Below, piece after piece: positions 44,330 through 64,000 of a stretch of 64,000 nt of DNA (its first letter is position 1; the number at the start of each line of letters is the position of its first letter). Under the pieces are notes generated by a model that saw only the letters and a list, made by a program, of their open reading frames with translations, was not told the origin of the DNA and ran no database searches. This DNA is from an uncultured Methanomicrobiales archaeon. GTDB taxonomy: Archaea > Halobacteriota > Methanomicrobia > Methanomicrobiales > Methanospirillaceae. The translations under genes and the position numbers were made by a program. The stretch lies in assembly GCA_963758915.1 (NCBI GenBank), contig CAVWXH010000005.1, positions 1 to 64,000 of the forward strand, in the 5' to 3' direction.

Positions 44330-44330
44330 T

Positions 44331-44795: not shown

Positions 44796-45079
44796 AGTCA
44801 AACCTCTACTATCCTCAATGTTGAGTGTAGTTATTGGAGAGAGCACTTCTCGTATAAAATTTTCTATGATGGATCCGGATCAAAAGCAATATTCTGAATT
44901 ATTGCGGAAGTTACCACCTCTGCTTGGCGGTTCACATCTTGAAATCACGGGTTGTTCAATCCACCCTTGGTATGCGAAACGGGTTTTTTGACCAGTAATA
45001 AAAAATCCTGCATCATAACCTTGTGTGTCGTTAAGAAAGCCCGGGTATTAAAAGTTACACATTTTCCAATTAAAAAAGG

Positions 45080-45910: not shown

Positions 45911-46162
45911 CTCCCATACCCCGTCATTCAGCGGACCCAGGAATTCGTCTAATGTTGTCAGGATCTCTGTCTCCTGTTCGTAATAATGATAGAGATTTGC
46001 CCTCTATTAATAGCCTCATGTTATAATTCCTGTGAACCCGGGAACAACAATGTGCCTCCTGAAACAGGGATAGCGAACATATTTTTTCCTTCACTGCAGG
46101 TTCACAAAACTATAAATTCTCGCAGGAGTCATTAGGCGAACGTAATATCTGGAGGAATTAAC

Positions 46163-46693: not shown

Positions 46694-47029
46694 CTGGGGT
46701 GGTATCCACTCACACCCGGATTTTTTCCGGTTTTAACCTTTACAGCAGAACAATTTTTTAGAATTCCCAAAAGTTATTACCCAATGGTTGCCGTTCTGGA
46801 AAACGAAGTATTTTTGCGGAAACTGGCCTAATTGTGTGAAATTAATCAGTATGTTACCGTTTTTTATTGACAGATCCCTGTCCGTTTCGTTTCCTTTCAT
46901 CCTGCCAGGAGGAAGGAGATCCTTTTTCGTCAATGAAAACCTCTATCAGTTGAGAATCGGCGGGAAACCTGCGAAAGGTATATCCAACGTCATCTGAATA
47001 CTACACTAGATATAAGACCCCGGTGTGAC

Positions 47030-48748
47030 ATGGCCGACCCTGACCGACCCTCCCCCGTTCCCGAATCAAAGCTCACCCGGGCGATTCCGATCCTGAAATG
47101 GCTTCCCTTATATAACCGCAGGTGGCTGAAATTTGACCTGGTTGCCGGTCTTACCCTTGCCATGTTCGCCATCCCGGACAACATGGCATATGCAACGCTT
47201 GCAGGCCTGCCCCCTGAATATGGCCTCTATGCGGGGATCATGGCCCCGCTGGGATATTTTATATTTGCCTCCTCCCGCCAGGCATCCGTCGGGCCCAGTT
47301 CATCCGAAGCATTAATGGTCGGGTCTTTCCTCGGTGTCCTTGCAATCACCAGTTTCACGCAGTACGCAGCACTTGCCGGCCTGACGGCAATCCTCGTCGG
47401 GATCATCGCAATTATCGCCTGGGCGCTCCGGATGGGGTTTTTAGTAAACCTGATCTCCGGGCCGGTCCTGAAGGGATTCCTTGCCGGGGCAGGGATAGTA
47501 ATCATCGCTTCACAGATCCCGAAACTTCTTGGTATTTCCGGTGCCCCATCTGATTTCTTCCCGAAAATCGTATATGTCCTCCAGAACCTGGACCAGACAA
47601 ATATCTACTCACTCACTCTTGGTATTCTCGCAATCGTCGCCATACTGGCAATTGAAAAGAAGTACCCCCGGGTGCCCGGCTCACTCATCATTGTTATCGC
47701 GGCCATCATTTTCATGACGTATTCGAGTTTTGTGGAGAAAGGAGTTGAGATACTGGGGTATATCCCCCCCGGTCTTCCAACAATTGGCATCCCTGAGTTC
47801 ACCGCCGCAGATGTAGGGACCGTGTTTCCTCTTGCGGTAGCGTTATTTATCCTGTCGTACGTGGAGCTCAGCACCATCGCCAAGACCTATGCCCAGAAAA
47901 ACAGGTACCAGGTCGATATGAACCAGGAACTTCTGGCCCTTGGTGCAGGCAGTGTTGCTGCAGGTGCGGGACAGGGTTTTCCTGTTGCCGGAAGTTTCAG
48001 CAAGTCGGCAGTAAATGACCGCAGCGGGGCAAAAACCCCCATGGCCGGGGCAATTGCCGCAGGTGTCACGATAATCGTCGTCCTGTTCTTCACCAGTTTT
48101 TTTTACAACCTCCCGGAGTGTGTCATTGCCGCTCTTATCATCGTTGCCGTGGTAAACATGGTAAATATCTTTGAACTTCAACGGATCCGGTCACTCGACA
48201 GGACTGAATTTTCAATTGCGATTGTGACCCTGCTCAGTGTGCTGGTTTTTGGAATCCTGCAGGGTGTCATCATCGGAACAGGGCTTTCACTCGTTGCCCT
48301 CCTGTACAGAATTGCATTTCCCCATATGGCGGTAATGGGGAGAGTTCCCGGTACTGAAATATTCGGGGATATCGAGAGGAAACCGGCGAAGGACCAGGTC
48401 CCGGGAGTACTGATATTCAGGGTGGATTCCCCGGTGTTGTTTGCGAATGCAAACGTGATCAGGGAACAACTCGATGAACTCATGGGAACAACAGTCCCGG
48501 CGGTGAAACTGGTAATTCTCGATTTCTATTCCTCCCCGATGCTTGACGTCACGGGAGCAGATATGATACGGGACCTGCTTACTGACTTTTCCCGGAAAGG
48601 GATCGAACTCCGGCTTGCCAATACAACCGGCCAGGTCAGGGACCTGATCAGGAAAGCAGGCCTCGTAGAAAAACTTGGAGGATTAACTGCAACAGATACG
48701 ATTTCAACAGTCCTTGATGAATGGGAGGGCAAAAATCATAGGAAATAG
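47030..48748 (+). CDS. SulP/SLC26 anion permease with STAS domain
   Basis: DLVAGLT, AYATLAGLPPEYGLY, NQELLALG, GSFSKS. STAS: FRVDSPVLFANA...DVTG. Confidence 0.95.
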   Translation: MADPDRPSPVPESKLTRAIPILKWLPLYNRRWLKFDLVAGLTLAMFAIPDNMAYATLAGLPPEYGLYAGIMAPLGYFIFASSRQASVGPSSSEALMVGSFLGVLAITSFTQYAALAGLTAILVGIIAIIAWALRMGFLVNLISGPVLKGFLAGAGIVIIASQIPKLLGISGAPSDFFPKIVYVLQNLDQTNIYSLTLGILAIVAILAIEKKYPRVPGSLIIVIAAIIFMTYSSFVEKGVEILGYIPPGLPTIGIPEFTAADVGTVFPLAVALFILSYVELSTIAKTYAQKNRYQVDMNQELLALGAGSVAAGAGQGFPVAGSFSKSAVNDRSGAKTPMAGAIAAGVTIIVVLFFTSFFYNLPECVIAALIIVAVVNMVNIFELQRIRSLDRTEFSIAIVTLLSVLVFGILQGVIIGTGLSLVALLYRIAFPHMAVMGRVPGTEIFGDIERKPAKDQVPGVLIFRVDSPVLFANANVIREQLDELMGTTVPAVKLVILDFYSSPMLDVTGADMIRDLLTDFSRKGIELRLANTTGQVRDLIRKAGLVEKLGGLTATDTISTVLDEWEGKNHRK

Positions 48749-48864
48749 AATTCTGGATTTAATTATATTTTTTTAAAGATTATTCATCCTGGCACGTGCT
48801 CAATTATTTATGCAGGAACGGGAAATAGCACATTCATAATTTATTGTCTTTACGGTGATCAACA

Positions 48865-49611
48865 ATGGAAAAAACATCCGGTAAGCCTAACGTCACAATT
48901 TCAAACAGCGGCTGTGAAATGAACGAACAGGACAAAGCGACCATGGTCATGATGACATTTTCAAACCTGCGTCGTGTCAGTTTCTGCGAAGTCATACTGT
49001 GGTGCGGTTTTGGCGGGACGTACGGTACAACCGGGCTGAATGACCCGAAAGATTCATGCCCGGAAGCCCTTTACAAGGGCCTCAGTAATGAGACGCTGGC
49101 TGCACAGTACCAGGTAAAGAGTGCCTCCCTCAACCCTCCCCGGGGCCGCAGGATCTGGTTATTGGACATATTGGAGATACCTGCGTCGACGACGGTGCGG
49201 GATTTCAACGGCCTCAAGGCACATTACTGGGGCCAGGTGGGGCCGGGACCCGACGGCGAACCATTGAAACTCGATCCCAGGAAACTCCAGTATAAGCCAC
49301 TGTATTTTGAACGTAATTCGGTCATCACCTTTGAAAAAGGGAAACCGGTCTTCCTGCTGGAGGACAATGAGGGCACAACATGGGTCTATAAGAACTACAC
49401 GACCGCCATGGACCCGACCATTACCTATGAGGACCTTCCGAACCTCGACAAAAGACTTAAGGACCTCCCTGCAGGGTTTAAATTCCGGACTAAAACCCTT
49501 GATAAGGATCTCGTCATAAAAGCAGTTGACGGGAAGGCACGGATCATGTGGGACGAACTGGGTGGTTCCTGGGACGCACTGGACCCCGGCGTGGCAAATT
49601 ATGTGCCCTAG
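48865..49611 (+). CDS. Conserved hypothetical protein (homolog of 51163-51837)
   Basis: FCEV...TTGLND...CP...NPPR...W.LD...GKPVFLL...DLPNL.KRL..LPAGF.F..KTLDKDL. Confidence 0.8.
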   Translation: MEKTSGKPNVTISNSGCEMNEQDKATMVMMTFSNLRRVSFCEVILWCGFGGTYGTTGLNDPKDSCPEALYKGLSNETLAAQYQVKSASLNPPRGRRIWLLDILEIPASTTVRDFNGLKAHYWGQVGPGPDGEPLKLDPRKLQYKPLYFERNSVITFEKGKPVFLLEDNEGTTWVYKNYTTAMDPTITYEDLPNLDKRLKDLPAGFKFRTKTLDKDLVIKAVDGKARIMWDELGGSWDALDPGVANYVP

Positions 49612-49747
49612 AATGGGATCCCCTTCTATTTTTTTGGTAGTTATACCTTGAAGACCGGGTATTTGTTGTAAAAAAATGAAGAATATCTGATGAAGGTCTT
49701 ATAAGACCGGATGAAACTGGTTAAGTACTACGTTGGTGATGTTTGAA

Positions 49748-51132
49748 ATGGAAAACAGTTCGAAACGACCGGGAGATACAATCAGCCTCGCTGATGCCCG
49801 TGAGATTGCCAGGGAGGCCTATATTTTCGGTTACCCGATGGTAGCCAACAACCGTGTCCAGTATACCTACTTTGTCAACCGGCAGAGCCCCGAATTTAAG
49901 GCGCCCTGGAACCATATCTGCAATATCCCCCGGGTTTATACGCCGGATGACCGGGCAACGGTGGCACCGAACTCGGACACGCCGTACTCCTTCCTCGGCA
50001 TGGACCTGCGGGCTGAACCGATCGTGCTTACCGTGCCCCACGTCGATGAGGGGCGTTATTTCAGTATCCAGCTCGTTGATTTATTCACGTTCAACTTCGA
50101 CTATATCAGCAGCCGGATGACGGGGAACGATGGGGGCCATTTCCTGGTTGCCGGTCCGGGATGGAAAGGGACAATCCCCGATGGGATCAGGAAGGTGTTT
50201 CACTCGGAGACCGAACTGGCGATGGCAATGTTCCGGACGCAGCTCTTTGGCCCTGACGATCTGAATAATGTAAAGAAAATCCAGGAGGGCTACAACGTAC
50301 AGACATTGTCAGAATTCCATGGGTAAGCCCGCACCCCGGGACGCTCCCAAAATCAATTTTATTGAACCATTAACCCCCGAACAACAAAAGACATCTGCCG
50401 AATTTTTCTCGGCCTTAAACTTTGTCCTTAACGTTCTGCCCGGTCCATCCTTCGGAGAAGGGGCTCATGGACCGGTTTGCACAAATCGGTGTAGGGGCTG
50501 GCAGGGATTTTAATGCAGGGGCCCTCTCTCCTGAAATGAGGGGGGCCATCGAACAGGGAATTGCCGGTGCCTGGGCCGAGTTCGCTGACCTCAAAAAGAA
50601 CCGTTTCGACACCCATGAAGTGGTCTTCGGGGATGTCTACGGTACACGGGAGTACCTGAAGAATAACTATCTCTACCGTATGGCAGGTGTCGTCATGGGC
50701 CTCTTCGGGGCATCGAAAGAGGAGGCGATGTACCCGTTATATGCCGTTGATTCAGACGGGGGTGCACTGGACGGGGCTAACCATTACTCACTGCGGTTTG
50801 AGCCGGGCGACCTTCCGCCCGTGAATGCCTTCTGGTCGCTGACGATGTACGGGTTGCCTGAGTTCCTCCTGGTAGCCAATCCCATCAACCGGTACCTGAT
50901 CAACTCCCCGATGCTGCCACAGCTCAGGCGGGATCCCGATGGCGGACTGACCCTGGTTATCAGTCACGATCCCCCGGGCAGGGACTGGGAGACAAACTGG
51001 CTTCCCGCACCAAAGGGGGCCTTTATCATGGCGTTGCGTCTCTACTGGCCGAAAGAAGAGGCGATAAACGCCACCTGGACCGCCCCGGAACTCGTGAAGG
51101 ATGATCCGGTGAAGGCTGCGAAGAATAAATAA
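49748..51132 (+). CDS. DUF1254/DUF1214 domain protein (~2 frameshifts, ~50315 and ~50432)
   Basis: EAYIFGYP, PNSDTPYS..DLRAEP, PPVNAFWSLTMY, NPINRYLINS, NWLPAP, LRLYWP. Confidence 0.85.
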
Positions 51133-51162
51133 GTCAGGTCGCCCATTAAGAAAAAAGAGTGG

Positions 51163-51837
51163 ATGATTATGAGCAAAACTGAAAATACTCTCTATGTTGA
51201 AAAGGCCCGTGGCTATGCCCAGTGCGAGATATTCCTGATGAAAAACGAGGCCGGGAACCTGGAAGCCCTGGTCTATAACACCACCGGGTTAAACGACTGT
51301 CCCCCGGCCAAGTATGATCCGATGGATGCAAAGGTGCTGGCACAAAAGACCCAGTCTGATGTGGTATGGAAGAACCCACGGCGCTTCTGGATGATGGACC
51401 ACCTGACGTTTTCCATTATCGGCGATCCCCGTGATTTCGACGGTCTCTCGTTTAATTTAGCCGCTAAAATGCAGATGCCCCCGGGATTCGACACATCGAA
51501 AGACCAGTCCTCACAGGCATATTCGCCGATGAAGATCCACCGTGTCTCCACGTACGAGTTCCTGGCAGGACGGATGGTCTTTATGCTGCGGTCGCCGGAT
51601 AACCACACCTTTGTCATGCAGACCTACACGAACCACGTTGACCACAGCCTGACCGAGGACGAACTCCCGGACCTGGGGAAACGGCTGAAACTTGCTGCCG
51701 GCTGGCAGTTCAAGGCAAAGACGCTCGACAAGAACCTGGTCATCAATACGACCGGCCTGGCCAACATCGTCCCGGACGACCTTGCGAACATGTACCAGGG
51801 CTGCATTGACGGCGTCAACAACTATGACCCCTGGTAG
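51163..51837 (+). CDS. Conserved hypothetical protein
   Basis: QCEIF...YNTTGLNDCP...NPRRFWMMD...FVMQTY...LPDLGKRLKL..GW...DDLANMYQ. Confidence 0.85.
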   Translation: MIMSKTENTLYVEKARGYAQCEIFLMKNEAGNLEALVYNTTGLNDCPPAKYDPMDAKVLAQKTQSDVVWKNPRRFWMMDHLTFSIIGDPRDFDGLSFNLAAKMQMPPGFDTSKDQSSQAYSPMKIHRVSTYEFLAGRMVFMLRSPDNHTFVMQTYTNHVDHSLTEDELPDLGKRLKLAAGWQFKAKTLDKNLVINTTGLANIVPDDLANMYQGCIDGVNNYDPW

Positions 51838-51989
51838 AGGTTTTGATATAAACATTTAGTCTGTAACGGGATGAAAAAAATACGAAGAATTGAATAGTAA
51901 TACATCTCCCGTCTCTTTTTATTGTTACCGGATACCGGTTTGGATTTAGTTCCCCATCATCATCTGTTCGGGGAATGGACCCGGGTTTT

Positions 51990-52683
51990 CTATGCCTTCA
52001 TATCTCCAGCATCCTGGTCGCGTGGCGGGTTGTGCAGGTTTCGGACAAGTATATACCCGCTGACCCCGAGCACCCATACCGGAAAGATCAGGGTTATCCA
52101 GGGGGAAATATCGATACTCAGCAACAGCACCAGCGCCAGCACGTATGTCAGGTAAGCCCAGCGACGGCGCATCGTACCGGTCCGGAGCCATATACTCGCC
52201 AGTGATATCATGAACACTCCTGCCATGCGGATGGCGTAGATATTGAAGATCTGGTACAGAATCGCCCTGTTGTAGACCAGTAAACCGCTTTGAAAGATAA
52301 TGTTCGAATCGATCGCATAACTGCTGAGCACACCTGCGGACAAGGCTGACCCGATGAAGGTTAATGCAAGAAATAACAGGCCACTGCCAAGGAAAACGGT
52401 TGCGAAGAGCCTGTCCTCCAGGTCACTGAGCCGGTCGCGGATCACCCCGATGAACCATAAAAATGCAATCCCTGAGTAAGGGATCAGGTTAAAGGCCAGG
52501 GCAACTGTTCCTGCAGCTTCTGATATTCATCCTGGTAAAGCCAGATACGGACTCGCTGGTAAGAGAGAGATTGATGAGCACCATGCTGGTACCGTAGAGC
52601 AGGGCAAAGATGATGCCGGCCAGAGCCGCAGACCGGGGTGTCTTGAGCGACTCCCGGTTGAAGGAAATTTTTGTCTCTGTCAT
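51990..52683 (-). CDS. Conserved hypothetical membrane protein (frameshift ~52530)
   Basis: LKTPRSAALAGIIF / GIAFLWFIGVIRDRL..EDRLFATVFLGSGLLF...RMAGVFM. Confidence 0.75.
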
Positions 52684-53121
52684 ACTGTTACTCTCTCAAT
52701 GTAGTTACATGGGGCGATGAATGACTCCCCTGACCTGAAGAATTTGTTTCTTGGAAAGAGTTCTCCTTAAAGTATATAAAACAATAATGGCAGGTAAGTT
52801 ACGAGTAGGCCCTCTTTTTGCCCGGCTTGTAACGAAATTTTCCTTTTCCGTAAAGGTACATGCAGGGGTCATGCCAAATGTATCCTGTTTCTGATATTCA
52901 CGGTGAAAATAAAAACCCACTAAATGACACCGTGAAAGAACTGATCGGGCAACATTCCAAAGCAGGTAACAACCGCCACGCTACTGACATAACTGACTGC
53001 TGGCGATAACGCAGCGGATCGGGTAGTCTGCAGGAAGGTCAGGCAGATCGGTTAACGTCACCGGGTGTCCCGCGAAAACATCCTGGCCGCAAGCAACACA
53101 AATCCGGAGAAAACAATAATC

Positions 53122-53662
53122 ATGACAACGAAAGGATCAGACTCTCAACCGGGCAACGAGCTGCCTGAACATAAGCGGACAAGCCTGGGACTCTACGTTA
53201 CCTCAAAAGAGGCATACGAGATGTGGAGGACCGAAGCCCGGGGAGGTCCACGTCGTCGATGTCCGTACCCCGGAAGAATACATATTTGTCGGCCACCCGG
53301 AGATGGCAAGGAACATTCCCCTCCTCTTTGTAAAACACCAGTGGGACACAGACAGGAAAGAGCCAGTAGTGGAACCCAATCCCGATTTCATCCGCCAGGT
53401 GAAAGGCTTGTATGCTCCCACCGATACGCTCCTTGTCATGTGCCGGTCAGGGGGCCGTAGTGCCATTGCGGTCAACCAACTGGCAAAAGCCGGGTTTTTG
53501 AACGTTTACAACATCACGGATGGTATGGAAGGGGACAAGGTGGACGACCCGGGCAGCGTATATTATGGGAAGCGGATGCGGAATGGCTGGAAAAATTCCG
53601 GGTTGCCCTGGACGTATGATATCAACCCCGGGATGTTATGGCCTGCCAGCGTTAATAGATAA
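53122..53662 (+). CDS. Rhodanese-like sulfurtransferase (frameshift ~53240)
   Basis: TSLGLYVT.KEAY / VDVRTPEEYIFVGHP, active loop MCRSGGRS, GMEGD...GWKNSGLPW. Confidence 0.85.
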
Positions 53663-54238
53663 CATCGCCAGGACCCCGGTGAAGAACGGATTTCCGACAA
53701 TGCCATTGTATGCCGATGACAAGGCGGCCATGTCAAATCCCAGTTGTTTTGCAGCTGATCCCCGGGCGATGCGGAATTTGTCCCGGATCCATGAAGAGAT
53801 CTGGGGGACCAGGATGTTGAGCGTCCCCTCAGGTCCGACACTCGCACCGGAGATGAGTGTGATGATGGAAGAGAGGAAAGCGCCAGGAAAGACACGGTAG
53901 TTGGTTACCAGTTTTTGTTCCTTCATGTTTTCCACGAAACCGCCATTGATCACGGTTGGTGCATGCAGGTATTTCTGGCAAAGCCCGACCAGGAGCGAGA
54001 AAAAGAGCACTCCCACGGGTATCGTCCACCGGTTGGCCAGGACAAATTCATTCTCGACCCAGATTGCCTTGGTAAGAAACGCGTACAGGGCCATGAACCC
54101 CGCGGTAAAGGCAATGGCAATGAGCGCAATGATGATGATTGCCAGAAAGAACGTGCCTGTCCACTGGAATGGCTGATCATCATCAATCCGTGGCTCCGGT
54201 GGTACCGGGTTACCTGGTGTGTCTTCCTGAACTGGCAT
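53636..54238 (-). pseudogene. ClC chloride channel/antiporter, N-terminal half only
   Basis: TLISGASVGPEG (gating-Glu motif), AYNGIVGNPF. Ends after ~190 aa where it collides with the rhodanese 3' end. Confidence 0.7.
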
Positions 54239-54622
54239 ATTTGTTCTACTCTTCTTTTCTTCTTCCCTGATTTATAAGAACCGATTCATATATTTGGTCG
54301 ATTCCTGGTTACTATTCCCATCATATTGTTGGGGCCACGGGTCCCTGCCATGATGTTTCAGGGTTACATTTCAACAGCCACCAATGGAATCCTGATTGTA
54401 TGTCTGATATTCGCCATCTGGCGATAATTAATGCAATCGTATCTGTTCTAAGTAGTTGTGTCCAAAGGTCAGATTGAGAAAAAACCCTGGAGATTCACGG
54501 ATCTGTTCTGAAATAAAACCTTGTCCAGAAAAAAAGAAAATCACCAGGAGACGATTAAAAAAATATGAACAGATAAATACTAAAAAATCAATTAAACCAG
54601 ATTGCATAAGGAGGAATAAAAA

Positions 54623-55204
54623 TTGGTAGAATACGGCCCGATACAGATGATTGCGATTGGATTTCCAGACATTGAGAAACTTGATGGTGCACTTCTCAAA
54701 GAGATTTTCCAGCTGAGTGAAGCAAGGCTGATACGAGTACTGGGGCTTCTCGCGGTTGTAAAGGATGAAAAAGGAAAAATTGCATCAGTCCAGATTACGG
54801 AACTTTCGGATGAAGACAGGGTAAAACTGGGTGCCGCAGTCGGAGCACTAATCGGTTTTGGTGCTGCCGGCGGGGAAGGTGCAATCGCCGGTGCACAAGC
54901 CGGAGCGGAACGGGCTGCCCATAAGGATTTTGGACTTACCAGGAACCAGATTAATGATATTGCAAAGAATATACCCAATAACACAGCCGCCGGTCTCCTG
55001 CTCATCGAGCACCTGTGGGCGAAGAAATTCAAGGAAATAGCCATGAAAAAGCACGGGGTCGTCCTTGCCAACAGCTTCATATCGCCCCTGGAACTCGTTG
55101 AACTCGGTGCAGAACTTGCAGACGGAGCCAGAGCCGCTGAAAAAGCACTCGATCAGTTACGAATTACAAGGCGGCCCATGTGGTTAAAAAGATTCTCAAC
55201 ATAG
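54623..55204 (+). CDS. DUF1269/DUF6325-like protein with glycine zipper
   Basis: Paralog of 46163-46693. TTG start after AGGAGG. C-terminal tail may be a frameshift artefact. Confidence 0.85.
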   Translation: MVEYGPIQMIAIGFPDIEKLDGALLKEIFQLSEARLIRVLGLLAVVKDEKGKIASVQITELSDEDRVKLGAAVGALIGFGAAGGEGAIAGAQAGAERAAHKDFGLTRNQINDIAKNIPNNTAAGLLLIEHLWAKKFKEIAMKKHGVVLANSFISPLELVELGAELADGARAAEKALDQLRITRRPMWLKRFST

Positions 55205-55370
55205 TTCAACTCATCATACCTTTTTAACACCCGTTTTTTGGAAATTTTAGATTGATTGATTACAGGTTGTTACGTAAGATTTTCCTTGGTTTTTTCTATC
55301 GGTATCTTTTAAATGAATCTACCAATATGTACTGTTGTTACCCATTGAATGGGTTCAGGAGACGACATCT

Positions 55371-56093
55371 ATGATGGAAGCACCGATGAAGATTACAATG
55401 GATTATGCCCAGGCATCTGAAACCCTAAAAACCTCCCTGAAGTTGAAGGGATCCCCCGTTGCAGTGGGTTTTGCAACAACCGCGGATGAGATCCCACCCG
55501 GGATGCCTGAAATCGATAAAGCAATCAAGCACTGCATGATGGTCGGCCTTGCCAGGAACGAAGGGAAAATCTTCTATGCCACTGCAGAGAAGCACGAGTG
55601 CAATGGCGGTGCCTGGGCGTTGGGACTCAAAGACCTCTCCCCGACCCTGAAAACCGGCAAATTTTATTTTAAACTGGGAAAATATGCGAGTACACCAGCC
55701 TGTAAAAGGACGATGAACAGCATACCACACCTTGGCACGGGAGATATTTATGCAACCATGTATGCTCCGCTCGAAAAGACACCGTTCACCCCGCATGTCA
55801 TCCTTGTTATTACCACCCCATGGTCAATGCTGAAACTTGCACAATCTTCATTATTCAAGCTGGGCGGCCGGGCACATGCCGAGTTCTCAGGGATCCAGTC
55901 TGTCTGTTCGGACTCAGTTGCAAAAGTCTACCTCAGCGGAAAGCCGAACTTCTCCCTCGGTTGCGATGGTTCCAGGAAATTTTCCGGTATTAACGATGAT
56001 GAAATGGTAATGGGCTTCCCTGCTGAAATGCTGCCAGAGATGGTGGACGCTGTGAAAATTATCACCCAGGCGCCAGGGTCAAAGAAGATTTAA
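55371..56093 (+). CDS. DUF169 family protein
   Basis: LKGSPVAV, HCMMV, HECNGG..ALG, GIQSVC, SLGCDGSR. Confidence 0.9.
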   Translation: MMEAPMKITMDYAQASETLKTSLKLKGSPVAVGFATTADEIPPGMPEIDKAIKHCMMVGLARNEGKIFYATAEKHECNGGAWALGLKDLSPTLKTGKFYFKLGKYASTPACKRTMNSIPHLGTGDIYATMYAPLEKTPFTPHVILVITTPWSMLKLAQSSLFKLGGRAHAEFSGIQSVCSDSVAKVYLSGKPNFSLGCDGSRKFSGINDDEMVMGFPAEMLPEMVDAVKIITQAPGSKKI

Positions 56094-56356
56094 TCCACAT
56101 AGTTTTTATTTTACCCGGTACCCATTCATCCAGGCTACTTCAGAAAGAGCAATTTCTCCCGTTTTTTTGAAAACAACACCTTTAAAGCGGGTATTGATGG
56201 TCATAGCGTCATCAGATCATAGTGCTTGGAAAAAATATTAAAATCAATAAGAACGACAATCATGAGTTCACACTAATACAGCCGGATTTTGAAGGAATCT
56301 ATCGAACAGTAACAAAAAAGAATATCCCGGAATAACCCCGGGTGTAATTCAGATAA

Positions 56357-56464
56357 TTATTTTTTCTCTTCCTTTTTTGCTTCTTCCTTCGCTTCTTTCT
56401 TGTCTTCTTTCCGTCCTTTCACTGCTTTAACCGCTGCTACTTTTCCAAGAAGTCCCATGTTCAT
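56357..56464 (-). CDS. 35-aa K/E-rich small protein
   Basis: MNMGLLGKVAAVKAVKGRKEDKKEAKEEAKKEEKK*, with GGAGAG RBS. Confidence 0.55.
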   Translation of the reverse strand: MNMGLLGKVAAVKAVKGRKEDKKEAKEEAKKEEKK

Positions 56465-57034
56465 CTCTCCTGCCACAACTGGAACTCTTTTGATCAGTTA
56501 TCTTTCCGTTGGGCTAAAGGTAAACTGTTCTTTATACGGTTTAAACCTTTGGGTGTTACAACGCTAAATTAGTGTTAATCCTGCGAAAATCAATACGCAA
56601 ATCGAAGTTGTCCAGGGAAACGATTCAGAGGTCCGGGGGGTGGAGACCGTATGGTGCTATGGATCCGGAATGGCACATGTGGGAAATAAAGGCAATTTTC
56701 AGGTATTTTAGTCCTAAATCCCTCTTAAACAGGCCTGTTGAATATTGACTCAAAAGGGACATAATTCGGGCTTTTTATAGGTGTAAGGGGGGGTGAAATT
56801 CCTTGAGGATGATGAATCCCTTCTTGGGTAGTTACATCAGGGGGTTATTGCCCGCTAATTCGGTCATACTTCAGGTATTTGCTCCAACAACCCTGCGGAA
56901 TTCAGGGCTGGAATTTGTTGAGCCGGATCAAACGTTACTGGCATCGGACCGTGCCTGAATTAATATAAGTGGCTGGATCACTATACCCTATACCACAGGT
57001 ACGTCTGTACGGCGTAGTTCCCGGGTGTGTCGGT

Positions 57035-57604
57035 ATGAAAGAGATAAAAATCGCAAAAACTCTGACAAATGGAAAGATCGCGATTGATATGTGGTTTAAA
57101 ACGCTTGACCAGCTGTTTGATGCATCAGATCCGTTTCCGTTTCCGGAAAAGGAATTAACAGACCTTGCAGAAGACTCGATATTTGAGTCGGTCATCGATC
57201 TGTACCTCCGGAAGGATTTCGATCTGGTATTACACATCCCGAGTGGCAGTGTTTCACCTGCAGATGAAGACCAGCTTGCGAATGCCGTGAGACGCCATTT
57301 TTCTTTCCGCCTGGACGACCTTGCACGCGAAAAAAAATCTTCATGGAGAGAGGGGCAGGTAAGTGTCCTTCTCGCCATAATGAACGCATTTATTGGCGTC
57401 TTTGTGTTCTATTATCTCTATTATGTCAATTCCGCTACATCGTTTATCTCAAGTCTCGTTGTCGGGGTCTTTGTGATCATCAACTGGGTGACAATCTGGG
57501 ACACGTATGAGTATTTTGTCTATGACTGGCGAAAACTCTGGAGAAAATACCGGGTATATGAAAAACTGACCCGGGTGAACGTGATCATACGACAGACATA
57601 CTAG
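57035..57604 (+). CDS. Conserved hypothetical 2-TM protein (paralog of 12607, 59530)
   Basis: MKEIKI...DPFPFPEKELTD...RRHFSFRLDDLAREKKSSWREG. Confidence 0.85.
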   Translation: MKEIKIAKTLTNGKIAIDMWFKTLDQLFDASDPFPFPEKELTDLAEDSIFESVIDLYLRKDFDLVLHIPSGSVSPADEDQLANAVRRHFSFRLDDLAREKKSSWREGQVSVLLAIMNAFIGVFVFYYLYYVNSATSFISSLVVGVFVIINWVTIWDTYEYFVYDWRKLWRKYRVYEKLTRVNVIIRQTY

Positions 57605-57911
57605 TGTCTCACCATTAGCCTATAAAGGAGCCCAACCACCTGGTTTCCAGGGGTTCCATTGGTGTGGGTGTGGCAGTGATACCGGTGGGCAGCAATGAAA
57701 AGGCCCGCCGTACCTCACCTTACCATCTGATGGTGACCCTGAAACGGGGCTTATCAACCCAAAACCCGTTATCATTCCGGATGGCCCAACCGAAAAAATA
57801 ACAGCGGGCAATTAAAAAAATTCACCTGGGTGAAGAGGTCGGCGATGAACGGGGACCTGATAATCAGAAATCTTAATCAGGATGGCAGATGAAGATACTG
57901 CTGGTATTACT

Positions 57912-58469
57912 ATGTCTGAAAACATGACCCCGTCGCTCAATGTGACACCGGGAACACACCTGTTCCCCTGGTGGCTTGTCCTTATCCAGGGTATTATTAC
58001 CCTTATCCTTGGGATATTCCTGCTTTACTACCCGTATGGGACTCTCCTGGTGCTGGTCACCTTCCTCGGTGCCTACTGGTTCGTCAGTGGCCTGTTTGGT
58101 CTCATAAGCCTGTTCGTCGATCGAACGAATGCTGGTTGGAAAATTCTGTTTGGTATCCTCGGTATTATTGCCGGTATCGCTATCCTGACCTACCCGTTGT
58201 ACAGTACGTTCGTCGTCCCCTATATTTTCATTATCTTCGTTGGTATTTGGGGACTCATTATGGGATTCATGGGCATCTTTGCAGCCTTTAAGGGTGGCGG
58301 ATGGGGTGCCGGTATTATCGGTATCCTCCTGATTATCTTCGGTTGCATAATCCTTGCCAACCCGGTTGTAACCGTCCTGATGCTGCCGTATATCCTCGGG
58401 GGTTTCGGGATTATCGGTGGAATAGCTGCCATTATCGGCGCTTTCATGCTCAAGGGCCAGACCGCATAA
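57912..58469 (+). CDS. HdeD/DUF308 family protein
   Basis: Near-identical protein to 34360-34926. Confidence 0.9.
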   Translation: MSENMTPSLNVTPGTHLFPWWLVLIQGIITLILGIFLLYYPYGTLLVLVTFLGAYWFVSGLFGLISLFVDRTNAGWKILFGILGIIAGIAILTYPLYSTFVVPYIFIIFVGIWGLIMGFMGIFAAFKGGGWGAGIIGILLIIFGCIILANPVVTVLMLPYILGGFGIIGGIAAIIGAFMLKGQTA

Positions 58470-58733
58470 ATTGCCCGGAAACCCGGGCCTGTTTAATCTT
58501 TTTTATTTAAGTGTTTGAAAACCGTCCTATAACCCGGTCAAATTTCTTAATCCTGCCAACAGGAGATCCTCACGAATAGTGAAGAACCGGCTTGCCGGCA
58601 GAGAGAAAAAAGATCTATGGTAATCTGTTTTGAATTCTTTCCCTGGTTGATAAGGGATCTAACTATGAATAAACGTCTGATAATTTTTGGGAAATGAAAA
58701 ACAGGTCCCTCCTGCAGGATAAAAAAATTCCCC

Positions 58734-59273
58734 TTATTCTCCTGAACTTCTCTCCATCAGCCCCACGATAACACTGAGGACTCCGAGGAAAACCAGGTAT
58801 ATCCCGAATACCTGCAGGAGAAGAACGGCAGAAGAAAGTGGCGGATAGAACAGGATAAGTAATCCGAAAATTGTGGATATTATCCCTTTCAATGCAAGAA
58901 GGCCCTTTCGCGTTTCAGCGTAGGTAATGGACAGGATCATGTTCTGGAAACCCATTACAATTGCCCAGATGGCAATTACATACACGACGATTGTGGCGGA
59001 CTCCTGTGGAAAGATGATAATGATACAACCAAGTACGAGTAACAAAATTCCAATGATCATTAACGGCCACTGGAGATAGGAATCCTCCTCAGAAACGCTG
59101 TATCCGGATATGATAAGGCCGATAGAGGTGACTATCACCACGAATGAAACAAGGAGGAGCAGGAAGGGACCTGCAATGGATGGGAACAGCAGGGCAAAAA
59201 ACCCGACAATTACTGCGAATAACCCGGTAAGAATACTGGTCTTCCAGTTCAGGCTTCCGAGTCCAGGGATCAT
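58734..59273 (-). CDS. HdeD/DUF308 family protein
   Basis: W.TSILTG...P; IAIWAIVMG; GIISTIFG. Six TMs. Confidence 0.85.
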   Translation of the reverse strand: MIPGLGSLNWKTSILTGLFAVIVGFFALLFPSIAGPFLLLLVSFVVIVTSIGLIISGYSVSEEDSYLQWPLMIIGILLLVLGCIIIIFPQESATIVVYVIAIWAIVMGFQNMILSITYAETRKGLLALKGIISTIFGLLILFYPPLSSAVLLLQVFGIYLVFLGVLSVIVGLMERSSGE

Positions 59274-59529
59274 GTAATCCACCTTGAATGAACTGCCATA
59301 GTAAACCACCAGTTAATCAGGGAGATATGAATACCTGTACCAGCCCTGATTTGTCCTTAATTGATCACGTCAATATTTAATACTCGTTATATCAGGAATA
59401 CCTGACGGAACGGTGGGAGCCTTGACAAACTTGTCCGGGACTTTTGTGTACTTCAATTGATATAGGTAACGAAATTATCATAGTATACGCAATAATTATG
59501 TCCGTACGTTATTACTCACAGGTGTTGGA

Positions 59530-60096
59530 ATGAAAGAGATCAAAATTACCCAGACCACGACCGATGGCAGGGGAGCTGTTGAGATGTGGTTTAAATCGCT
59601 GGACCAGCTCTTCGATACATCCGATCCCTTTCCGTTCCCGGAAAAGGAGTTGACGGATATGGCCGAGGATGCAATATTCGAGTCGTTCATCGATTTATCT
59701 CTCCGGAAAGATGTTGATTTGGTAGTACATATACCAAAAGGGAGTGTGTCTCCAGGTGAAGAAGACCAGCTGGCTAATGCCGTGAGACGCCATTTCTCGT
59801 TCCGCCTGGATGACCTTGCCCGGGAAAAAAAATCATCCTGGAGAGAGGGAAAGGTAAGCGTCCAAATCGCCATCCTCACCCTGGCATTAAGCATTGTTGT
59901 GTTTTATTTCTATTATCTCTCTCCGGTGGTCGGTTTTGCCTTCCAACTGCTGATTGGAGTCTTCATTATTGTCAACTGGGTAGCAATCTGGCATACCTAC
60001 GAGTATTTTGTGTATGATTACCGGAAACTGTGGAGAAAATTCCGGGTATATGACAACCTGACCCGGGTGAACGTGGTCATCCGGCAGACGATATAA
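59530..60096 (+). CDS. Conserved hypothetical 2-TM protein (paralog of 12607, 57035)
   Basis: Same DPFPFP / RRHFSFRL / YEYFVY motifs. Confidence 0.85.
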   Translation: MKEIKITQTTTDGRGAVEMWFKSLDQLFDTSDPFPFPEKELTDMAEDAIFESFIDLSLRKDVDLVVHIPKGSVSPGEEDQLANAVRRHFSFRLDDLAREKKSSWREGKVSVQIAILTLALSIVVFYFYYLSPVVGFAFQLLIGVFIIVNWVAIWHTYEYFVYDYRKLWRKFRVYDNLTRVNVVIRQTI

Positions 60097-60230
60097 GAAG
60101 GTAGGCGGAATCCCTGCCTTAATTACTGTTTTCCCTTCTGCCAGCCCCAGCTTTCGGGCCCAATCAGGAACATACGTGGGTACCGGTTCACGGCACCAGC
60201 GAATCCCTAAAAAAAGCACCTGCCCGGGGG

Positions 60231-63047
60231 TTATACCTGGGCGGGCACTGCGACGGGAGGAGTTGCCGGATTGTGCTTGCGACGGCTGCGCAGGAAGACC
60301 TTCATGATCTCGTAGACCAGGAGCAGGGCGATTGCTAACCCGATGCAGAGCAGCCACTGGCTTCCGTTCAGCGAGGTCAGGCCAAGTCCTGCCTGCAGGA
60401 AATTCAACTGGGTCGGCAGGAAGATGAGCAGCAGGGCCAGGCCGTTGAGCATCAGCTGGTGCCGATCGTCTAAGATATTCCGGTTGAATGCTGTCAGGGT
60501 TTCACTGTGGCAGCTGATACCACTCATAACAACGAAGAGTGAGAACATGACGAACGCCATGGTAGCGGCCACCGCGGCTCCCACCGGCGCAGCGACTGCT
60601 TCCACGACCAGGGTACCAGCCGCCATGAGTATCCCGATAAAGCCGATGCGGACCCATTGCGAACCCGAGAGAACGGGCTGGCTGATCGGGCGTGGCTTGC
60701 GGTCCATCAGCCCGGGTGCAGGCTTGTCGAAACCAAGGGAGACGGCGACCGGTACCTGGACCAGGAAGTTGATCCACAGGACGACGAATGGTGCAAACGG
60801 CACACCGCCGGCGATGTAGAAGAATGCTGCACCCAGGTATGCCACGATGTATGCCACCAGGTTTGTCATCTGGAAGCGAATGAAATTGGACAGGTTTTCG
60901 TAGATCCCCCTGCCAAACTCCACTGCTTTGACAATGGTGGCGAAGTTGTCGTCTGTCAGGATCATCACGGCGGCCCCTTTCGAGACCTCGGTCCCCGTGA
61001 TCCCCATTGCAACGCCAATGTCCGCCTTCTTGAGGGCCGGCGCATCGTTGACGCCGTCCCCGGTCATGGCGACGATGTTCTGCTGGCGCTGCAGGAGGTC
61101 CACCAGGCGGATCTTGTCCTCGGGGGCCACACGTGCCACCACACCGATTTCCGGCAGCTCTTTCATCAGCTGGTCATCACTCATGGCTTTGAACTCTGCG
61201 CCGGTGAGCGCCTTACCCCCGATACCCAGCTCATGCCCGATGGCTGCGGCCGTCACCGCATGGTCACCGGTGATCATCCGTACCTGGATGCCGGCGCTGT
61301 GGCACCTGGCGATAGCGTCCCGTGCCTCGGGACGTGGCGGGTCGACGATACCTACCATGGCCAGAAGCGTGAGGTCGGTCACCTGGTCGACCAGCTTAGC
61401 CGTCGGATCGAAGGTCTGCGGGTCGAAATCGCGACGTGCGACTACCATCACCCGTTCACCTGCCTGCGCCATGCGGTCGTTTTCCTCGTATGCAAGGGGA
61501 AGTTTCTCTTCAGTAGCCGGCATGACCTCCCCGCCTGGCATCCAGTACCAGTTGCTGCGGGCGATCAGTACATCCGGGGCACCTTTAACAAAGCAGCGGA
61601 CAACCGGCCTGCCCTGCTCATTGGTCATGTTGTGAAACGTCGCCATGAACTTGTAGTCAGAATCGAACGGCACCTCGGCCAGACGGGGGTACATTTCTCG
61701 TGCCCCATCCACGCTGATCCCGCCTTTCTCTGCCAGAACAATTAACGCACCCTCGGTAGGATCGCCGATTAAGGTACCGTTGTCGAGCCGGGCGTCGGCG
61801 CACAATGCCATGGGAAGGAGGATCGGATCGAGGTCAACCCTTGCTCCACCGGAGCTCAGCAGCTTGCCTTCAGTACTATAGGTCAGCGTATTCTTCTGCC
61901 AGGGTTGTAATCCTGCTATACCTCCGGCCAGGGCCATGGCCCCCTGTGTGCCGTAGCCTTCCCCGGTTACCCGGAAACGGTTCTGGCCGGGGATGGTAAA
62001 CTCGCGGGCTGTCATCTTGTTGAGGGTCAGGGTACCGGTCTTATCGGAGCAGATTGCCGATACCGAGCCCAGTGTCTCGACCGATGGCAGCCGTTTGACG
62101 ATGGCGCCAAGGCTTGCCAGTGCCCGCGTCCCCATGGAGTACATCGTGGTCACGACAGCAGGCAGGCCGGTGGGTATAGCCGCAATAGCGAGGGCAATGC
62201 CTGCGAGGAATATCGTCTCGAAGGAATCCCCGTGGCCCAGGCCCAGGATAACCATCAGGACAAATGCCAGACCGGCCATGCCGGCGATGATGATGATCAA
62301 CTTGTCCAGCTGTTTCTGCAATGGCGTCTTGTCGGATTTTGTCTTGTTGAGCAGGTCGGCGATGTGGCCCATCTCGGTGCCCATCCCGGTGGTGGTCACG
62401 ATCATCTCGCCGCGGCCGCGGGTCACTGCGGTGTTCATGAAGGCCATGCAAAGGCGGTCGCCGAGCGGGACATCAGGACTGGTAATTGCCCCGGTGTCCT
62501 TGGGAGAGGCAACGCTCTCGCCGGTCAGGGCCGCCTCCTCGATCTCGAGGGTCGCCGTAACGAACAGGCGCCCATCGGCCGGCACGCGGTTGCCTGCCTC
62601 CATCAGCACGATGTCGCCCGGGACCAGCCCCTCCGCTTCGATCTCAACCGCTACGCCGTCGCGGCGTACACGGGTGATGTTCTTCATCATCTTCTCGAGT
62701 GCGGCAAGGCTGGCCTCGGCCTTAGCCTCTCCGTGCAGCCCCAGTATTGCGTTGAAAACTGTCAGGCCCAGCAGCACCACGGTCGTGCCCGCTTCGCGGG
62801 TGACCACCAGGCTGATCAGGGCCACACCTACTAAGAGGATCTGCATGAAGTCCTTGTACTGGCGCAGGAAAGCCTGCCAGCCCTTCTCCTTCTTCTTGGC
62901 GGCCAGGACGTTGGGGCCGTACTGTTGCAGGCGCTGCCCGGCCTCGGCCGTGTCGAGCCCTTTTGCCGGATCAACCTTCAGTTGCTCTGCAACTGCCTCC
63001 GGTGTCATCGAATACCATTTCAGTTGTTCCTGTACCGTGTCTGCCAT
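60231..63047 (-). CDS. P-type ATPase, type II-like fold with atypical transport site
   Basis: LTGES, DKTGTLT, GDPTE, KGAPD, DPPR, MITGDH, TGDGVNDAPAL, 10 TMs. M4 reads IPTGLP. Confidence 0.95.
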   Translation of the reverse strand: MADTVQEQLKWYSMTPEAVAEQLKVDPAKGLDTAEAGQRLQQYGPNVLAAKKKEKGWQAFLRQYKDFMQILLVGVALISLVVTREAGTTVVLLGLTVFNAILGLHGEAKAEASLAALEKMMKNITRVRRDGVAVEIEAEGLVPGDIVLMEAGNRVPADGRLFVTATLEIEEAALTGESVASPKDTGAITSPDVPLGDRLCMAFMNTAVTRGRGEMIVTTTGMGTEMGHIADLLNKTKSDKTPLQKQLDKLIIIIAGMAGLAFVLMVILGLGHGDSFETIFLAGIALAIAAIPTGLPAVVTTMYSMGTRALASLGAIVKRLPSVETLGSVSAICSDKTGTLTLNKMTAREFTIPGQNRFRVTGEGYGTQGAMALAGGIAGLQPWQKNTLTYSTEGKLLSSGGARVDLDPILLPMALCADARLDNGTLIGDPTEGALIVLAEKGGISVDGAREMYPRLAEVPFDSDYKFMATFHNMTNEQGRPVVRCFVKGAPDVLIARSNWYWMPGGEVMPATEEKLPLAYEENDRMAQAGERVMVVARRDFDPQTFDPTAKLVDQVTDLTLLAMVGIVDPPRPEARDAIARCHSAGIQVRMITGDHAVTAAAIGHELGIGGKALTGAEFKAMSDDQLMKELPEIGVVARVAPEDKIRLVDLLQRQQNIVAMTGDGVNDAPALKKADIGVAMGITGTEVSKGAAVMILTDDNFATIVKAVEFGRGIYENLSNFIRFQMTNLVAYIVAYLGAAFFYIAGGVPFAPFVVLWINFLVQVPVAVSLGFDKPAPGLMDRKPRPISQPVLSGSQWVRIGFIGILMAAGTLVVEAVAAPVGAAVAATMAFVMFSLFVVMSGISCHSETLTAFNRNILDDRHQLMLNGLALLLIFLPTQLNFLQAGLGLTSLNGSQWLLCIGLAIALLLVYEIMKVFLRSRRKHNPATPPVAVPAQV

Positions 63048-63064
63048 CTTGTGGGCCTCCTTTT

Positions 63065-63952
63065 TTAGTATTTCTCCGGAATCCGGCGGAATGGATAGTC
63101 CGGTTCGACGTAGTCGCCCTTCGGCTGGCGCTTGGGAAGTTTCACCTTCTCACGAGGGACTTCCTTGTAGGGGATCAGGCTTAACAGGTGGGCGATGCAG
63201 TTCAGTCGCCCGCGCCGCTGGTCGTGAGAATCCACAACATACCAGGGCGATTCAGGGGTATCAGTGGCAGCAAACATATCGTCGCGGGCCCGCGAGTAGT
63301 CGTACCAGCGGCGATGGCTCTCGAGGTCCATCGGGCTGAGCTTCCAGATCTTGCGGTAGTCATTGATACGTTCCTCGAAGCGTTCGGTCTGGTCTTCCAT
63401 GGTCTCTTCCAGCCAGTACTTCACCAGGATAATCCCGGATCCAATGATCGCCTGTTCGACCGGGGGCACCCAGTTCAGGAACTTTTCCACCTCTGCCTCC
63501 GGGGTAAATCCCATTACCCGCTCAACACCCGCCCGGTTGTACCAGCTGCGGTCGAAGAGTACCACTTCGCCGGCGGCCGGCAGGTGCGGAATGTAGCGCT
63601 GGATGTACATCTGGGACTTCTCCCGCTCTGTGGGTGACGGCAGGGCCACCAGCCGGAAGACTCGCGGGCTCGTGCGTTCGGTGATGCGTTTGATGACGCC
63701 GCCCTTGCCGGCTGCATCGCGGCCTTCGAAGAGCACGCAGACCTTGGCGCCGCTGACCTTCACCCATTCCTGCATCTTGACGAGCTCGATCTGGAGCTTC
63801 TCCAGCTCCTTTTCGAATTCCCTGCGACTCATCTTTGCCTGGGGTTCCACCGCGGCCTCAGTTGTCTGGCTGTCAGGTGCAGCCGGGATGCCGTCCCGCG
63901 GCCCGGCCTTTGCCTGGTGCTTCACTTTCTTCTTGTCTTTCTGCTTCGCCAT
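63065..63952 (-). CDS. ppk2: Polyphosphate kinase 2
   Basis: FEGRDAAGKGG, PTERE, FDRSWYNRAGVERVMGF, WKLSPMD. Confidence 0.95.
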   Translation of the reverse strand: MAKQKDKKKVKHQAKAGPRDGIPAAPDSQTTEAAVEPQAKMSRREFEKELEKLQIELVKMQEWVKVSGAKVCVLFEGRDAAGKGGVIKRITERTSPRVFRLVALPSPTEREKSQMYIQRYIPHLPAAGEVVLFDRSWYNRAGVERVMGFTPEAEVEKFLNWVPPVEQAIIGSGIILVKYWLEETMEDQTERFEERINDYRKIWKLSPMDLESHRRWYDYSRARDDMFAATDTPESPWYVVDSHDQRRGRLNCIAHLLSLIPYKEVPREKVKLPKRQPKGDYVEPDYPFRRIPEKY

Positions 63953-64000
63953 AGTTACTTCTCCATGATCTTATAGTCTTAATAAATTCTGCCTTAACGA

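Follow-up and report, generated by a model that had tools for sequence, protein, structure and literature searches.

Two adjoining genes lie on the reverse strand near the end of a 64,000-nucleotide stretch of DNA, referred to here as the window (positions 1 to 64,000 of contig CAVWXH010000005.1, from an uncultured Methanomicrobiales archaeon). The first gene of the pair (63065..63952) encodes P0002, a single-domain class I PPK2 of 295 amino acids with a lysine-rich N-terminal tail, and the second (60231..63047) encodes P0001, a P2-like P-type ATPase; features of the pair are all given on the reverse strand (-). The genome is that of a methanogen, with mcrA present, and its best relatives are metagenome-assembled genomes (MAGs) of the Methanoregulaceae. 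The specificity of P-type ATPases is taught as a matter of carboxylates in the membrane helices M4, M5, M6 and M8. The ATPase described here, termed the pump, is a member of an uncharacterised P2-like clade that is without the M4 glutamate, and comparison with its homologues shows that all four canonical carboxylates have indeed been lost, throughout the family and under selection.

The open reading frame (ORF) of the pump is uninterrupted over 938 residues and contains the catalytic motifs TGES (residues 175-178), DKTGT (335-339; the phosphorylation motif, 62031..62045), KGAP (488-491) and TGDGVND (662-668), the columns of which are invariant or near-invariant in an alignment of 148 sequences. 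ORF translation, motif positions and this alignment thus confirm the intact frame and complete motif set recorded in the preliminary description of the locus. In Pfam, all domains of a P2-type pump are recognised (E1-E2_ATPase, Hydrolase, Cation_ATPase, Cation_ATPase_N and Cation_ATPase_C). Among the NCBIfam models, only the generic P-type model TIGR01494 (HAD-IC) is passed, at 281.2 bits against a cut-off of 62.3, and the score falls below the cut-off of every substrate-specific equivalog: TIGR01522 (PMR1-type; 575 bits, cut-off 798.3), TIGR01116 (SERCA-type; 510.3, cut-off 703.4), TIGR01517 (PMCA-type; 434.5, cut-off 507), TIGR01647 (P3A H+-ATPases; 377, cut-off 615.5), the Mg2+ equivalog (323, cut-off 611), TIGR01497 (KdpB; 121.7, cut-off 527.9), TIGR01652 (P4 flippases; 74.5, cut-off 431.25) and TIGR01657 (P5; 197.5, cut-off 618.25).

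An AF2 model of the pump, built on the 148-sequence alignment, has a mean pLDDT of 84, and its helices break at residues 291-294, the usual unwound stretch of M4. Foldseek comparison of the model with LMCA1, SPCA1 and SERCA gave best TM-scores of 0.85-0.89, to E2-type states, and the pump is confidently predicted to have a P2 fold, in which ten helices cross the membrane and M4 is unwound. An ESM Atlas search with the pump returned generic P-type clusters only. The intact ORF and motifs, a ribosome-binding site and low dN/dS values (see below) and the modelled P2 fold together mark the gene as one that encodes a functional P-type pump. The best sequence and fold matches are LMCA1 of Listeria (6zhf), human SPCA1 (8iwp) and SERCA1a; identity over the fold alignment is 35%, and the TM-scores reach 0.89. 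The pump shares with these P2A Ca2+(/Mn2+)-ATPases the domain order, the ten membrane helices, the unwound M4 with its proline, the M6 Asn and the catalytic motifs. In contrast to P2A pumps, it has uncharged residues where those have Glu in M4, Asn and Glu in M5, Asp in M6 and Glu in M8. The pump scores under every Ca2+ equivalog cut-off, belongs to a separate, well-supported clade, and is linked to PPK2 or the arginine deiminase (ADI) pathway, a linkage absent from 19 ordinary P-type ATPase loci.

Site residues were mapped by a HMMER alignment to LMCA1 (6zhf, E 5.5e-155) and, in a second mapping, by a MAFFT alignment with canonical P2A representatives, in which the motifs are PEGL (M4), SSNVGE-like (M5) and NLVTD (M6); both agree with the manual alignment of M4, M5, M6 and M8 made earlier. 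In M4, AIPEGL of canonical pumps becomes AIPTGL, with P292-T293-G294-L295 in the unwound stretch (62163..62174; codons ccc acc ggc ctg), such that Thr293 takes the place of Glu. Codon reading verified both the position of this PTGL motif and the claim that its ACC codon is three changes away from any Glu codon, since all three positions differ from GAA and GAG. The M5 segment (residues 722-738, FIRFQMTNLVAYIVAYL; 60834..60884) presents Leu730 and Tyr733 at the positions of the canonical Asn and Glu. The M6 segment (residues 756-770, VLWINFLVQVPVAVS; 60738..60782) retains the universal Asn as Asn760 and has Val763-Gln764 for Thr-Asp, and the M8 segment (residues 829-849; 60501..60563) has Val839 at the canonical Glu/Gln position. 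The M4 Glu and M6 Asp that make up Ca2+ site II are therefore represented by Thr293 and Gln764, and the alignments reveal no conserved carboxylate elsewhere in M4, M5, M6 or M8. Conserved Arg and Lys residues are likewise absent from the membrane core in the alignment of 118 homologues introduced below. The predicted pocket is lined by neutral oxygen donors, namely the M4 backbone, Thr293, Gln726, Thr728, Asn729, Asn760, Gln764, Ser836 and Ser842.

Because both the defining site residues and the scores needed to pass the curated cut-offs are lacking, the pump is not filed here as a Ca2+ pump, and the database name 'Ca2+-transporting ATPase' for these proteins is very probably wrong. The same genome also encodes canonical PEGL pumps, which argues that the PTGL pump is not the calcium pump of that genome.

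A word-index search identified 120 proteins that are 74-100% identical to the pump, 118 of which, with lengths of 880-960 amino acids, were aligned. Position 293 is Thr in 116 of these close homologues and Ser in the other two. Gln726 and Asn760 are invariant (118/118), Tyr737 is present in 116 and Ser836 in 106, and position 764 is either Gln (107) or Thr (11). The M4 prolines at positions 292 and 296 are each found in all 118 sequences, as are Asp66 and Glu107, the SERCA counterparts of which we take to be acidic residues lining the cytoplasmic cation entry funnel. The family as a whole is not strictly free of carboxylates at two acidic positions: position 728 in M5, which is Thr in this gene and Glu in 26 of the 118, and Glu816, near the outer end of M7, which is present in 114. 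Polar blocks in M5 and M8 are exchanged among the homologues in the combinations E728, S729 with V839, L842; T728, A729 with N839; and T728, N729 with V/A839, S842. This exchange suggests that the region of the old 'site I' is still selected for some polar groups.

Nei-Gojobori dN/dS values against five relatives are 0.08-0.16 for the whole gene and 0.10-0.25 for the membrane segments. The earlier claim that every canonical carboxylate has been lost is thus upheld by the 118 homologues and by the dN/dS values, and the proposed check for a one-off decay, whether close homologues carry PEGL, came out in favour of a family trait, as Thr293 recurs in 116 of them. A decayed allele or a sequencing error of an ordinary Ca2+ pump is next to impossible and found no support: the same residues occur in 116/118 and 107/118 homologues from many assemblies, the Thr codon is three changes from Glu, and dN/dS is well below 1.

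To place the pump among its relatives, 50%-identity representatives were searched exhaustively, yielding 14,682 proteins at E <=1e-30. A motif regular expression applied to M4 in the best 150 of these 14,682 returned Glu in 130, another residue in 10, a doubtful residue in one and no pattern match in 9; the ten non-Glu motifs comprise six PTGL and one each of PTGM, PTAL, PMAM and PVAL. A scan of one genome per species gave 601 relatives, and the locus counts reported here rest on 79 of the 601. A FastTree phylogeny of 88 rows was calculated from the query pump, 60 loci and 27 representatives, with canonical P2A pumps as the outgroup; the 18 loci with an ORF shorter than 800 amino acids and the frameshifted locus L081 were left out. 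In the tree, 61 rows form a clade that lacks the M4 Glu, with support 100, and the sister of this clade is a PEGL group that has the M6 Asp. Members of the clade come from methanogens, Chloroflexota, Actinomycetota and Bacillota. The query subfamily comprises 11 rows (support 100), which are 72-92% identical to the query and come from Methanoregulaceae, Methanosarcina sp. T3, another Methanobacteriota MAG, a Sporomusaceae MAG and Chloroflexota. The clade appears to have branched from bacterial P2A-like pumps and to be horizontally mobile.

The binding pocket varies from one subfamily to the next. The sister subfamily of the query's, which is actinobacterial with one Chloroflexota and one Thermomicrobiota MAG, has an M6 Asp and an M8 His, and so does a second subfamily. 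In the sister subfamilies the M6 Asp is always accompanied by His at the position of the SERCA M8 Glu (loci L015-L022, L030-L033, L038, L039, L041, L059, L066, L071-L074, L079 and L082). An Arthrobacter/methanogen subfamily instead has an M4 Asp (PDAL) together with His at the M6 Asn position; both kinds of Asp/His pair are suggestive of proton or transition-metal chemistry. Further subfamilies have an M6 without any polar residue. In the query subfamily the former Asp is Gln, Thr or Ser and the former His is Asn, Val, Ala or Ser. Because its subfamilies differ in this way, the pocket of the clade is unusually changeable, and the query branch is among those without an ionisable pair.

The PPK2 gene accompanies the pump well beyond the window. 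The window protein matches PF03976 (1.1e-90, 303.6 bits) and exceeds the cut-off of TIGR03707, the PA0141-type equivalog (338.8 bits, cut-off 301.8), which places it with the class I PPK2s of the PA0141 type. A tblastn search with it matched 33 of the 79 genome loci, 27 of them at 56% identity or more, and a Walker-type GRDxAGKGG stretch is invariant in 23 pump-linked PPK2s. Wherever the gap is readable, PPK2 adjoins the pump on the same strand, either upstream or downstream depending on the subclade, with gaps mostly of 3-152 nt. Many linked PPK2s add a lysine-rich tail: such an N-terminal tail (e.g. MAKQKDKKKVK) is seen in approximately 13 of the 23, from Chloroflexota, Actinomycetota and Methanoregulaceae, with start codons chosen by hand in all loci other than the window. 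This tail could bind polyphosphate or acidic lipids. The unlinked PPK2 of the window's genome in locus L092 is without it. In that locus (G000:C2:136661-140350) a 312-amino acid PPK2 directly precedes a gene judged by eye to be carbamate kinase-like; if so, two ATP-regenerating enzymes lie side by side there.

The second recurrent neighbour is the ADI operon, which consists of ADI, ornithine carbamoyltransferase, carbamate kinase, a DcuC-type carrier and often NhaC; a gene for ADI is found in 19 of the 79 loci. Among the 55 loci in the tree that belong to the clade without the M4 Glu, 26 have PPK2, 15 have ADI-pathway genes and 37 have either. The corresponding numbers for the 10 query-subfamily loci within the clade are 10 (seven of the close and three of a distant PPK2 type), 2 and 10, and the five loci of the PEGL sister group have neither. 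As a control, the flanks (4 kb either way) of 20 other P-type ATPase genes were inspected in relatives of the window's genome. No PPK2 or ADI-pathway neighbour was found within 4 kb at the 19 ordinary control loci, 18 of them recognised by PE in M4 and one by NLVTD in M6. The remaining control locus, of the PDAL type, has a distant PPK2. Within the window's genome, the three other P2/P3 pumps are not near any of the three other PPK2 genes. The ppk2 linkage noted earlier is therefore conserved and specific (26/55 clade loci vs 0/5 in the PEGL sister group and 0/19 controls). Eleven metagenome loci of the query type with at least 1 kb of upstream sequence include seven with PPK2, one with ADI, carbamate kinase and DcuC, and three with neither, so that PPK2 is 'usually' rather than 'always' beside query-type pumps on these contigs.

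Fusions of PPK2 with the ATPase were sought and none was found in 18 long representatives, in 115 matches of at least 1643 amino acids, or in the 120 listed of 368 long PPK2 relatives, the rest of which could hide a fusion of approximately 1230 amino acids. Pyruvate,water dikinase domains were encountered as fusions to distant P2-type ATPases of 34% identity (P0333-P0344), so that here too a pump is joined to an enzyme of energy transfer. Other long relatives (P0139, P0136, P0180, P0226 and P0206) are fusions to a Na+/H+ exchanger with TrkA_N, AI-2E, a formate/nitrite transporter, CDF or HlyD; for all these fusions, gene-calling artefacts are possible.

The PPK2 and pump genes form a 3.7 kb island of 57-62% GC in flanks of 42-47%. 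A 17-nt spacer (63048..63064) separates the PPK2 stop codon from the pump ATG and contains a GGAGG Shine-Dalgarno ribosome-binding site 8 nt ahead of that ATG. Archaeal and bacterial members are 72-78% identical, and PPK2 identity follows pump identity across loci. Close orthologues (83-98% identity) occur in four of 12 other genomes of the same genus; 18 further relatives, whose genomes may be incomplete, gave no match above 54% identity to the pump. To judge by composition, phylogeny and shared divergence, PPK2 and the pump move between microbes as a two-gene unit. No convincing direct or inverted repeats were found flanking the pair, and no Rfam family reached its gathering score in the 20 kb.

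Seven consecutive T residues (60209..60215), starting 16 nt past the pump stop codon, are a possible archaeal terminator, as oligo-T terminates archaeal transcription, and TTTATTAA (63979..63986), 27-34 nt upstream of the PPK2 ATG, is a possible TATA box. The two putative signals would fit a two-gene archaeal transcript. Both genes are covered by contigs from RNA libraries (four runs; metagenomes of wetlands and sediments), one of which, 259 nt long, spans 62881-63139 across the PPK2-pump junction with 1 mismatch. These contigs give a weak hint of expression; their depth and gaps are uninformative on expression level, and the holes in X16 and X19 do not signify silence. An ORF of 156 amino acids (59887-60357, (-)) that overlaps the 3' end of the pump is treated as spurious because its similarity to other loci is confined to the out-of-frame overlap with the ATPase. 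Just past the window end, 350-560 nt upstream of PPK2 and on the same strand, an ORF of approximately 70 amino acids (L009:8295-8510(-)) is hydrophobic and seems to have two membrane helices.

The region 44200-59400 of the window is packed with membrane proteins of unknown function and holds three DUF308 (HdeD-like) genes, three of DUF6325 or DUF1269, SulP, DUF1254 with DUF1214, and DUF169. The preliminary description had called on SulP, ClC and HdeD neighbours as support for an anion or pH role. These neighbours are weak evidence: all lie outside the high-GC two-gene island, and SulP (47030-48748 in the window) recurs in 11 and HdeD-like DUF308 in one of the 79 loci. The 'ClC' call (53636-54238, (-)) is an ORF of 200 amino acids that scores 22.8 bits for Voltage_CLC, below the Pfam cut-off of 24.8, and is probably a fragment or a false call. 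Of that earlier reading as a whole, the site loss (118 homologues) and the ppk2 link (26/55 loci) hold, and the argument from these neighbours is weak. DUF6325, like SulP, is found near clade pumps of other phyla, in nine of the 79 loci. At five Chloroflexota loci a small membrane protein of approximately 95-99 amino acids (MCC...GPR...PWT.LMYV...) is encoded 0.1-1.3 kb downstream of the pump (L010:5908-6201, L011:8819-9103, L013:9170-9457, L024:10058-10357 and L027:9241-9537), and it is also seen in L061, L076 and L079; it has no Pfam match and is absent from the window.

The pump recalls several characterised systems and departs from each. KdpB is the seven-helix subunit of KdpFABC and has an M5 Asp/Lys pair. 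Like the pump, KdpB (P1A) has Thr where P2 pumps have the M4 Glu; in the copy from the same genome (G000:C6:7740-9783) the stretch reads LAPTTIGGL, compared with AIPTGLP in the pump. KdpB thus shows that Thr at this place in M4 is compatible with the transport of a monovalent cation by a P-type ATPase. Unlike KdpB, the pump is far under the TIGR01497 cut-off and has no KdpA-like neighbour, and the true kdpB lies elsewhere in the genome. That kdpB (locus L174) is split into two overlapping ORFs of 541 and 209 amino acids, which may reflect a frameshift or an assembly error. The P3A H+-ATPases of fungi, plants and archaea provide a working analogy of a single-site electrogenic membrane energiser without a counter-ion. 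P3A pumps need the M6 Asp, which is absent from the query subfamily, and the pump also misses the TIGR01647 cut-off. With P4 flippases and P5 ATPases it shares an M4 without the PEGL Glu and a cargo that is probably not Ca2+; unlike in these families, its M4 is neither PISL nor PPxLP, and no beta-subunit-like partner recurs beside it. Local ATP regeneration at a P-type pump is already known from eukaryotes, in which a phosphagen kinase, creatine kinase, is coupled to SERCA; here, unlike there, the pairing lies in an operon that moves between phyla.

The reading that we prefer, tentatively and at somewhat less than an even chance, is that the protein pumps a monovalent cation electrogenically by way of an all-neutral site and is supplied with ATP regenerated from polyphosphate through PPK2 or, in relatives, from arginine through carbamate kinase. 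The neutral donors, Asp66 and Glu107 at the predicted entry funnel, the Thr of KdpB and the Asp/His pair of the sister subfamilies lead us to favour one small monovalent cation. The conserved neutral oxygen donors (Thr, Gln, Asn, Ser and Tyr) would suit Na+ or K+, and the retention of Asp and His in the same pocket by the nearest subfamilies points to small ions for the clade. The functional part of the reading is based on the fact that PPK2 and the ADI pathway both make ATP by substrate-level phosphorylation. The pump would export one monovalent cation per cycle, electrogenically and without charge compensation; a site without carboxylates would allow no H+ counter-transport. Na+ would be the likeliest ion in this methanogen, with K+ as the alternative. 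PPK2, presumably co-transcribed with the pump, would convert the pump's ADP back to ATP at the expense of polyphosphate, a task that carbamate kinase of the ADI pathway may take over in relatives. The pair would thereby energise the membrane, or clear an ion, when normal energy conservation is off. We infer the ion, the direction of transport and the recycling of ATP by PPK2.

Several points weigh against this reading. To our knowledge, all characterised cation-pumping P2 and P3 ATPases keep at least one carboxylate in the pocket, and KdpB has its M5 Asp. The identity of the ion is a guess. Anions, too, can be bound by pockets of Ser, Tyr, Asn and Gln, ClC being an example, and genes for SulP anion carriers lie near 11 of the 79 loci. 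Adjacency of PPK2 shows shared use rather than recycling, and PPK2 is missing from 29 of the 55 clade loci and from four of the 11 query-type metagenome loci; the window's genome also has its three further PPK2 genes. The RNA-library contigs cannot prove transcription or a single transcript. In addition, kdpB scores above its cut-off in four of six carrier genomes checked. Because Kdp thus co-occurs with the pump, and the two distributions are not complementary, K+ uptake as a substitute for Kdp is rejected.

Among the rival explanations, a substrate other than a cation, such as an anion (Cl-, bicarbonate or phosphate), a neutral or organic solute, a lipid or a peptide, would make the pump a new P-type transport class. 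The step from absent carboxylates to a non-metal, neutral, anionic or lipid/peptide substrate, as taken in the preliminary description, is one of analogy. It draws on the absence of all four carboxylates from this gene, without any conserved replacement in helices M4, M5, M6 and M8, on a pocket rich in Ser, Thr, Tyr, Asn and Gln, residues that coordinate anions in other proteins, and on the P4 and P5 pumps, whose non-Glu M4 motifs go with non-metal cargo. SulP, near 11 of the 79 loci and in the window, also speaks for it, although in the window SulP is outside the island. An anion would, however, meet a membrane core without conserved Arg or Lys behind an entry funnel whose predicted acidic residues, Asp66 and Glu107, are invariant, and the Asp with His of the sister subfamilies and the Glu728 of 26 close relatives speak against a non-cation cargo. 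A lipid or peptide cargo fits poorly with scores far under the flippase (74.5 vs 431) and P5 (197.5 vs 618) models and with the lack of a recurrent Cdc50-like partner among the neighbours. A non-cation substrate is accordingly unlikely. Export of H+ by way of bound water, or of a residue that is not part of the canonical pocket, for example Glu816 in M7, would rebuild the proton-motive force from polyphosphate- or arginine-derived ATP, in keeping with the linkage to two substrate-level ATP sources, the protonatable Asp/His pair of the sister subfamilies, and the HdeD-like and other acid-stress-type genes nearby in the window. Glu816 is specific to the query subfamily and occurs in 114 of the 118 homologues, but it lies near the outer end of M7 (helix 795-822 of the model) and is not known to line a pathway, and it is exactly the protonatable pair that the query subfamily has lost; we give a proton pump only a small chance.

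A divalent-metal pump with a rebuilt site would carry Mg2+, Mn2+ or Ca2+, either to serve PPK2 or as freed from polyphosphate, through water-mediated or backbone coordination. The closest solved relatives are Ca2+/Mn2+ pumps, the databases name the family accordingly, polyphosphate chelates divalent cations and PPK2 needs a metal. We nevertheless know of no precedent for a divalent ion in a pocket without a carboxylate, all Ca2+ and Mg2+ equivalog cut-offs are failed (575 vs 798, 510 vs 703 and 323 vs 611), and the canonical PEGL pumps of the genome are available for that job, which makes this explanation quite improbable. That the protein is not a transporter, its ATPase cycle having been co-opted for sensing or regulation, for instance of polyphosphate use, and its membrane domain serving as an anchor, is very unlikely: the canonical ligands are indeed lost while the catalytic motifs are fully kept, and the gene is tightly paired with one for a soluble enzyme, but the membrane segments are under purifying selection (dN/dS 0.10-0.25), pocket positions are invariant, the M5 and M8 polar residues compensate each other, and Pro292 and Pro296 of the unwound M4 are kept in all 118 homologues. 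A more far-reaching reading is less likely than not. It holds that PPK2 and the pump are a self-contained, mobile 'polyphosphate-driven ion pump' of a new specificity class, in which the lysine-rich tail may hold PPK2 at the membrane or on polyphosphate and ADP is recycled; in its boldest form, the cargo is an anion.

A literature search that covered the main text of papers found no paper on a PTGL-type pump, this clade, or a link to PPK2 or ADI. The clade is not mentioned in the available part of the Palmgren 2023 review (PMC10654040), and the accessible portion of the classification paper PMC3896382 reports no new classes and is likewise silent on it. PMC3573892, in the part available, cites Chan et al. 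2010 and mentions FUPA24. The clade may be listed, without function, among the TCDB FUPA families 3.A.3.23-32 (Chan et al. 2010).

A large, conserved clade that crosses domains and is without these carboxylates breaks the specificity rule as it is taught, and the clade is a clean target for new coordination chemistry or new cargo. Cultured carriers, including Methanosarcina sp. T3, Nocardioides pini, Catellatospora sichuanensis, Arthrobacter spp. and Cellulosimicrobium sp., exist, and the pump hypothesis is therefore testable. If the cargo is an anion, this would be the first molecularly defined anion-pumping P-type ATPase. The specific pairing with PPK2 and the ADI pathway hints that cells which are starving or do not respire could draw on stored polyphosphate for membrane work, with soil actinomycetes and wetland methanogens as candidate users. 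If the more far-reaching reading is true, polyphosphate or, in relatives, arginine would energise the membrane directly, without ATP synthase.

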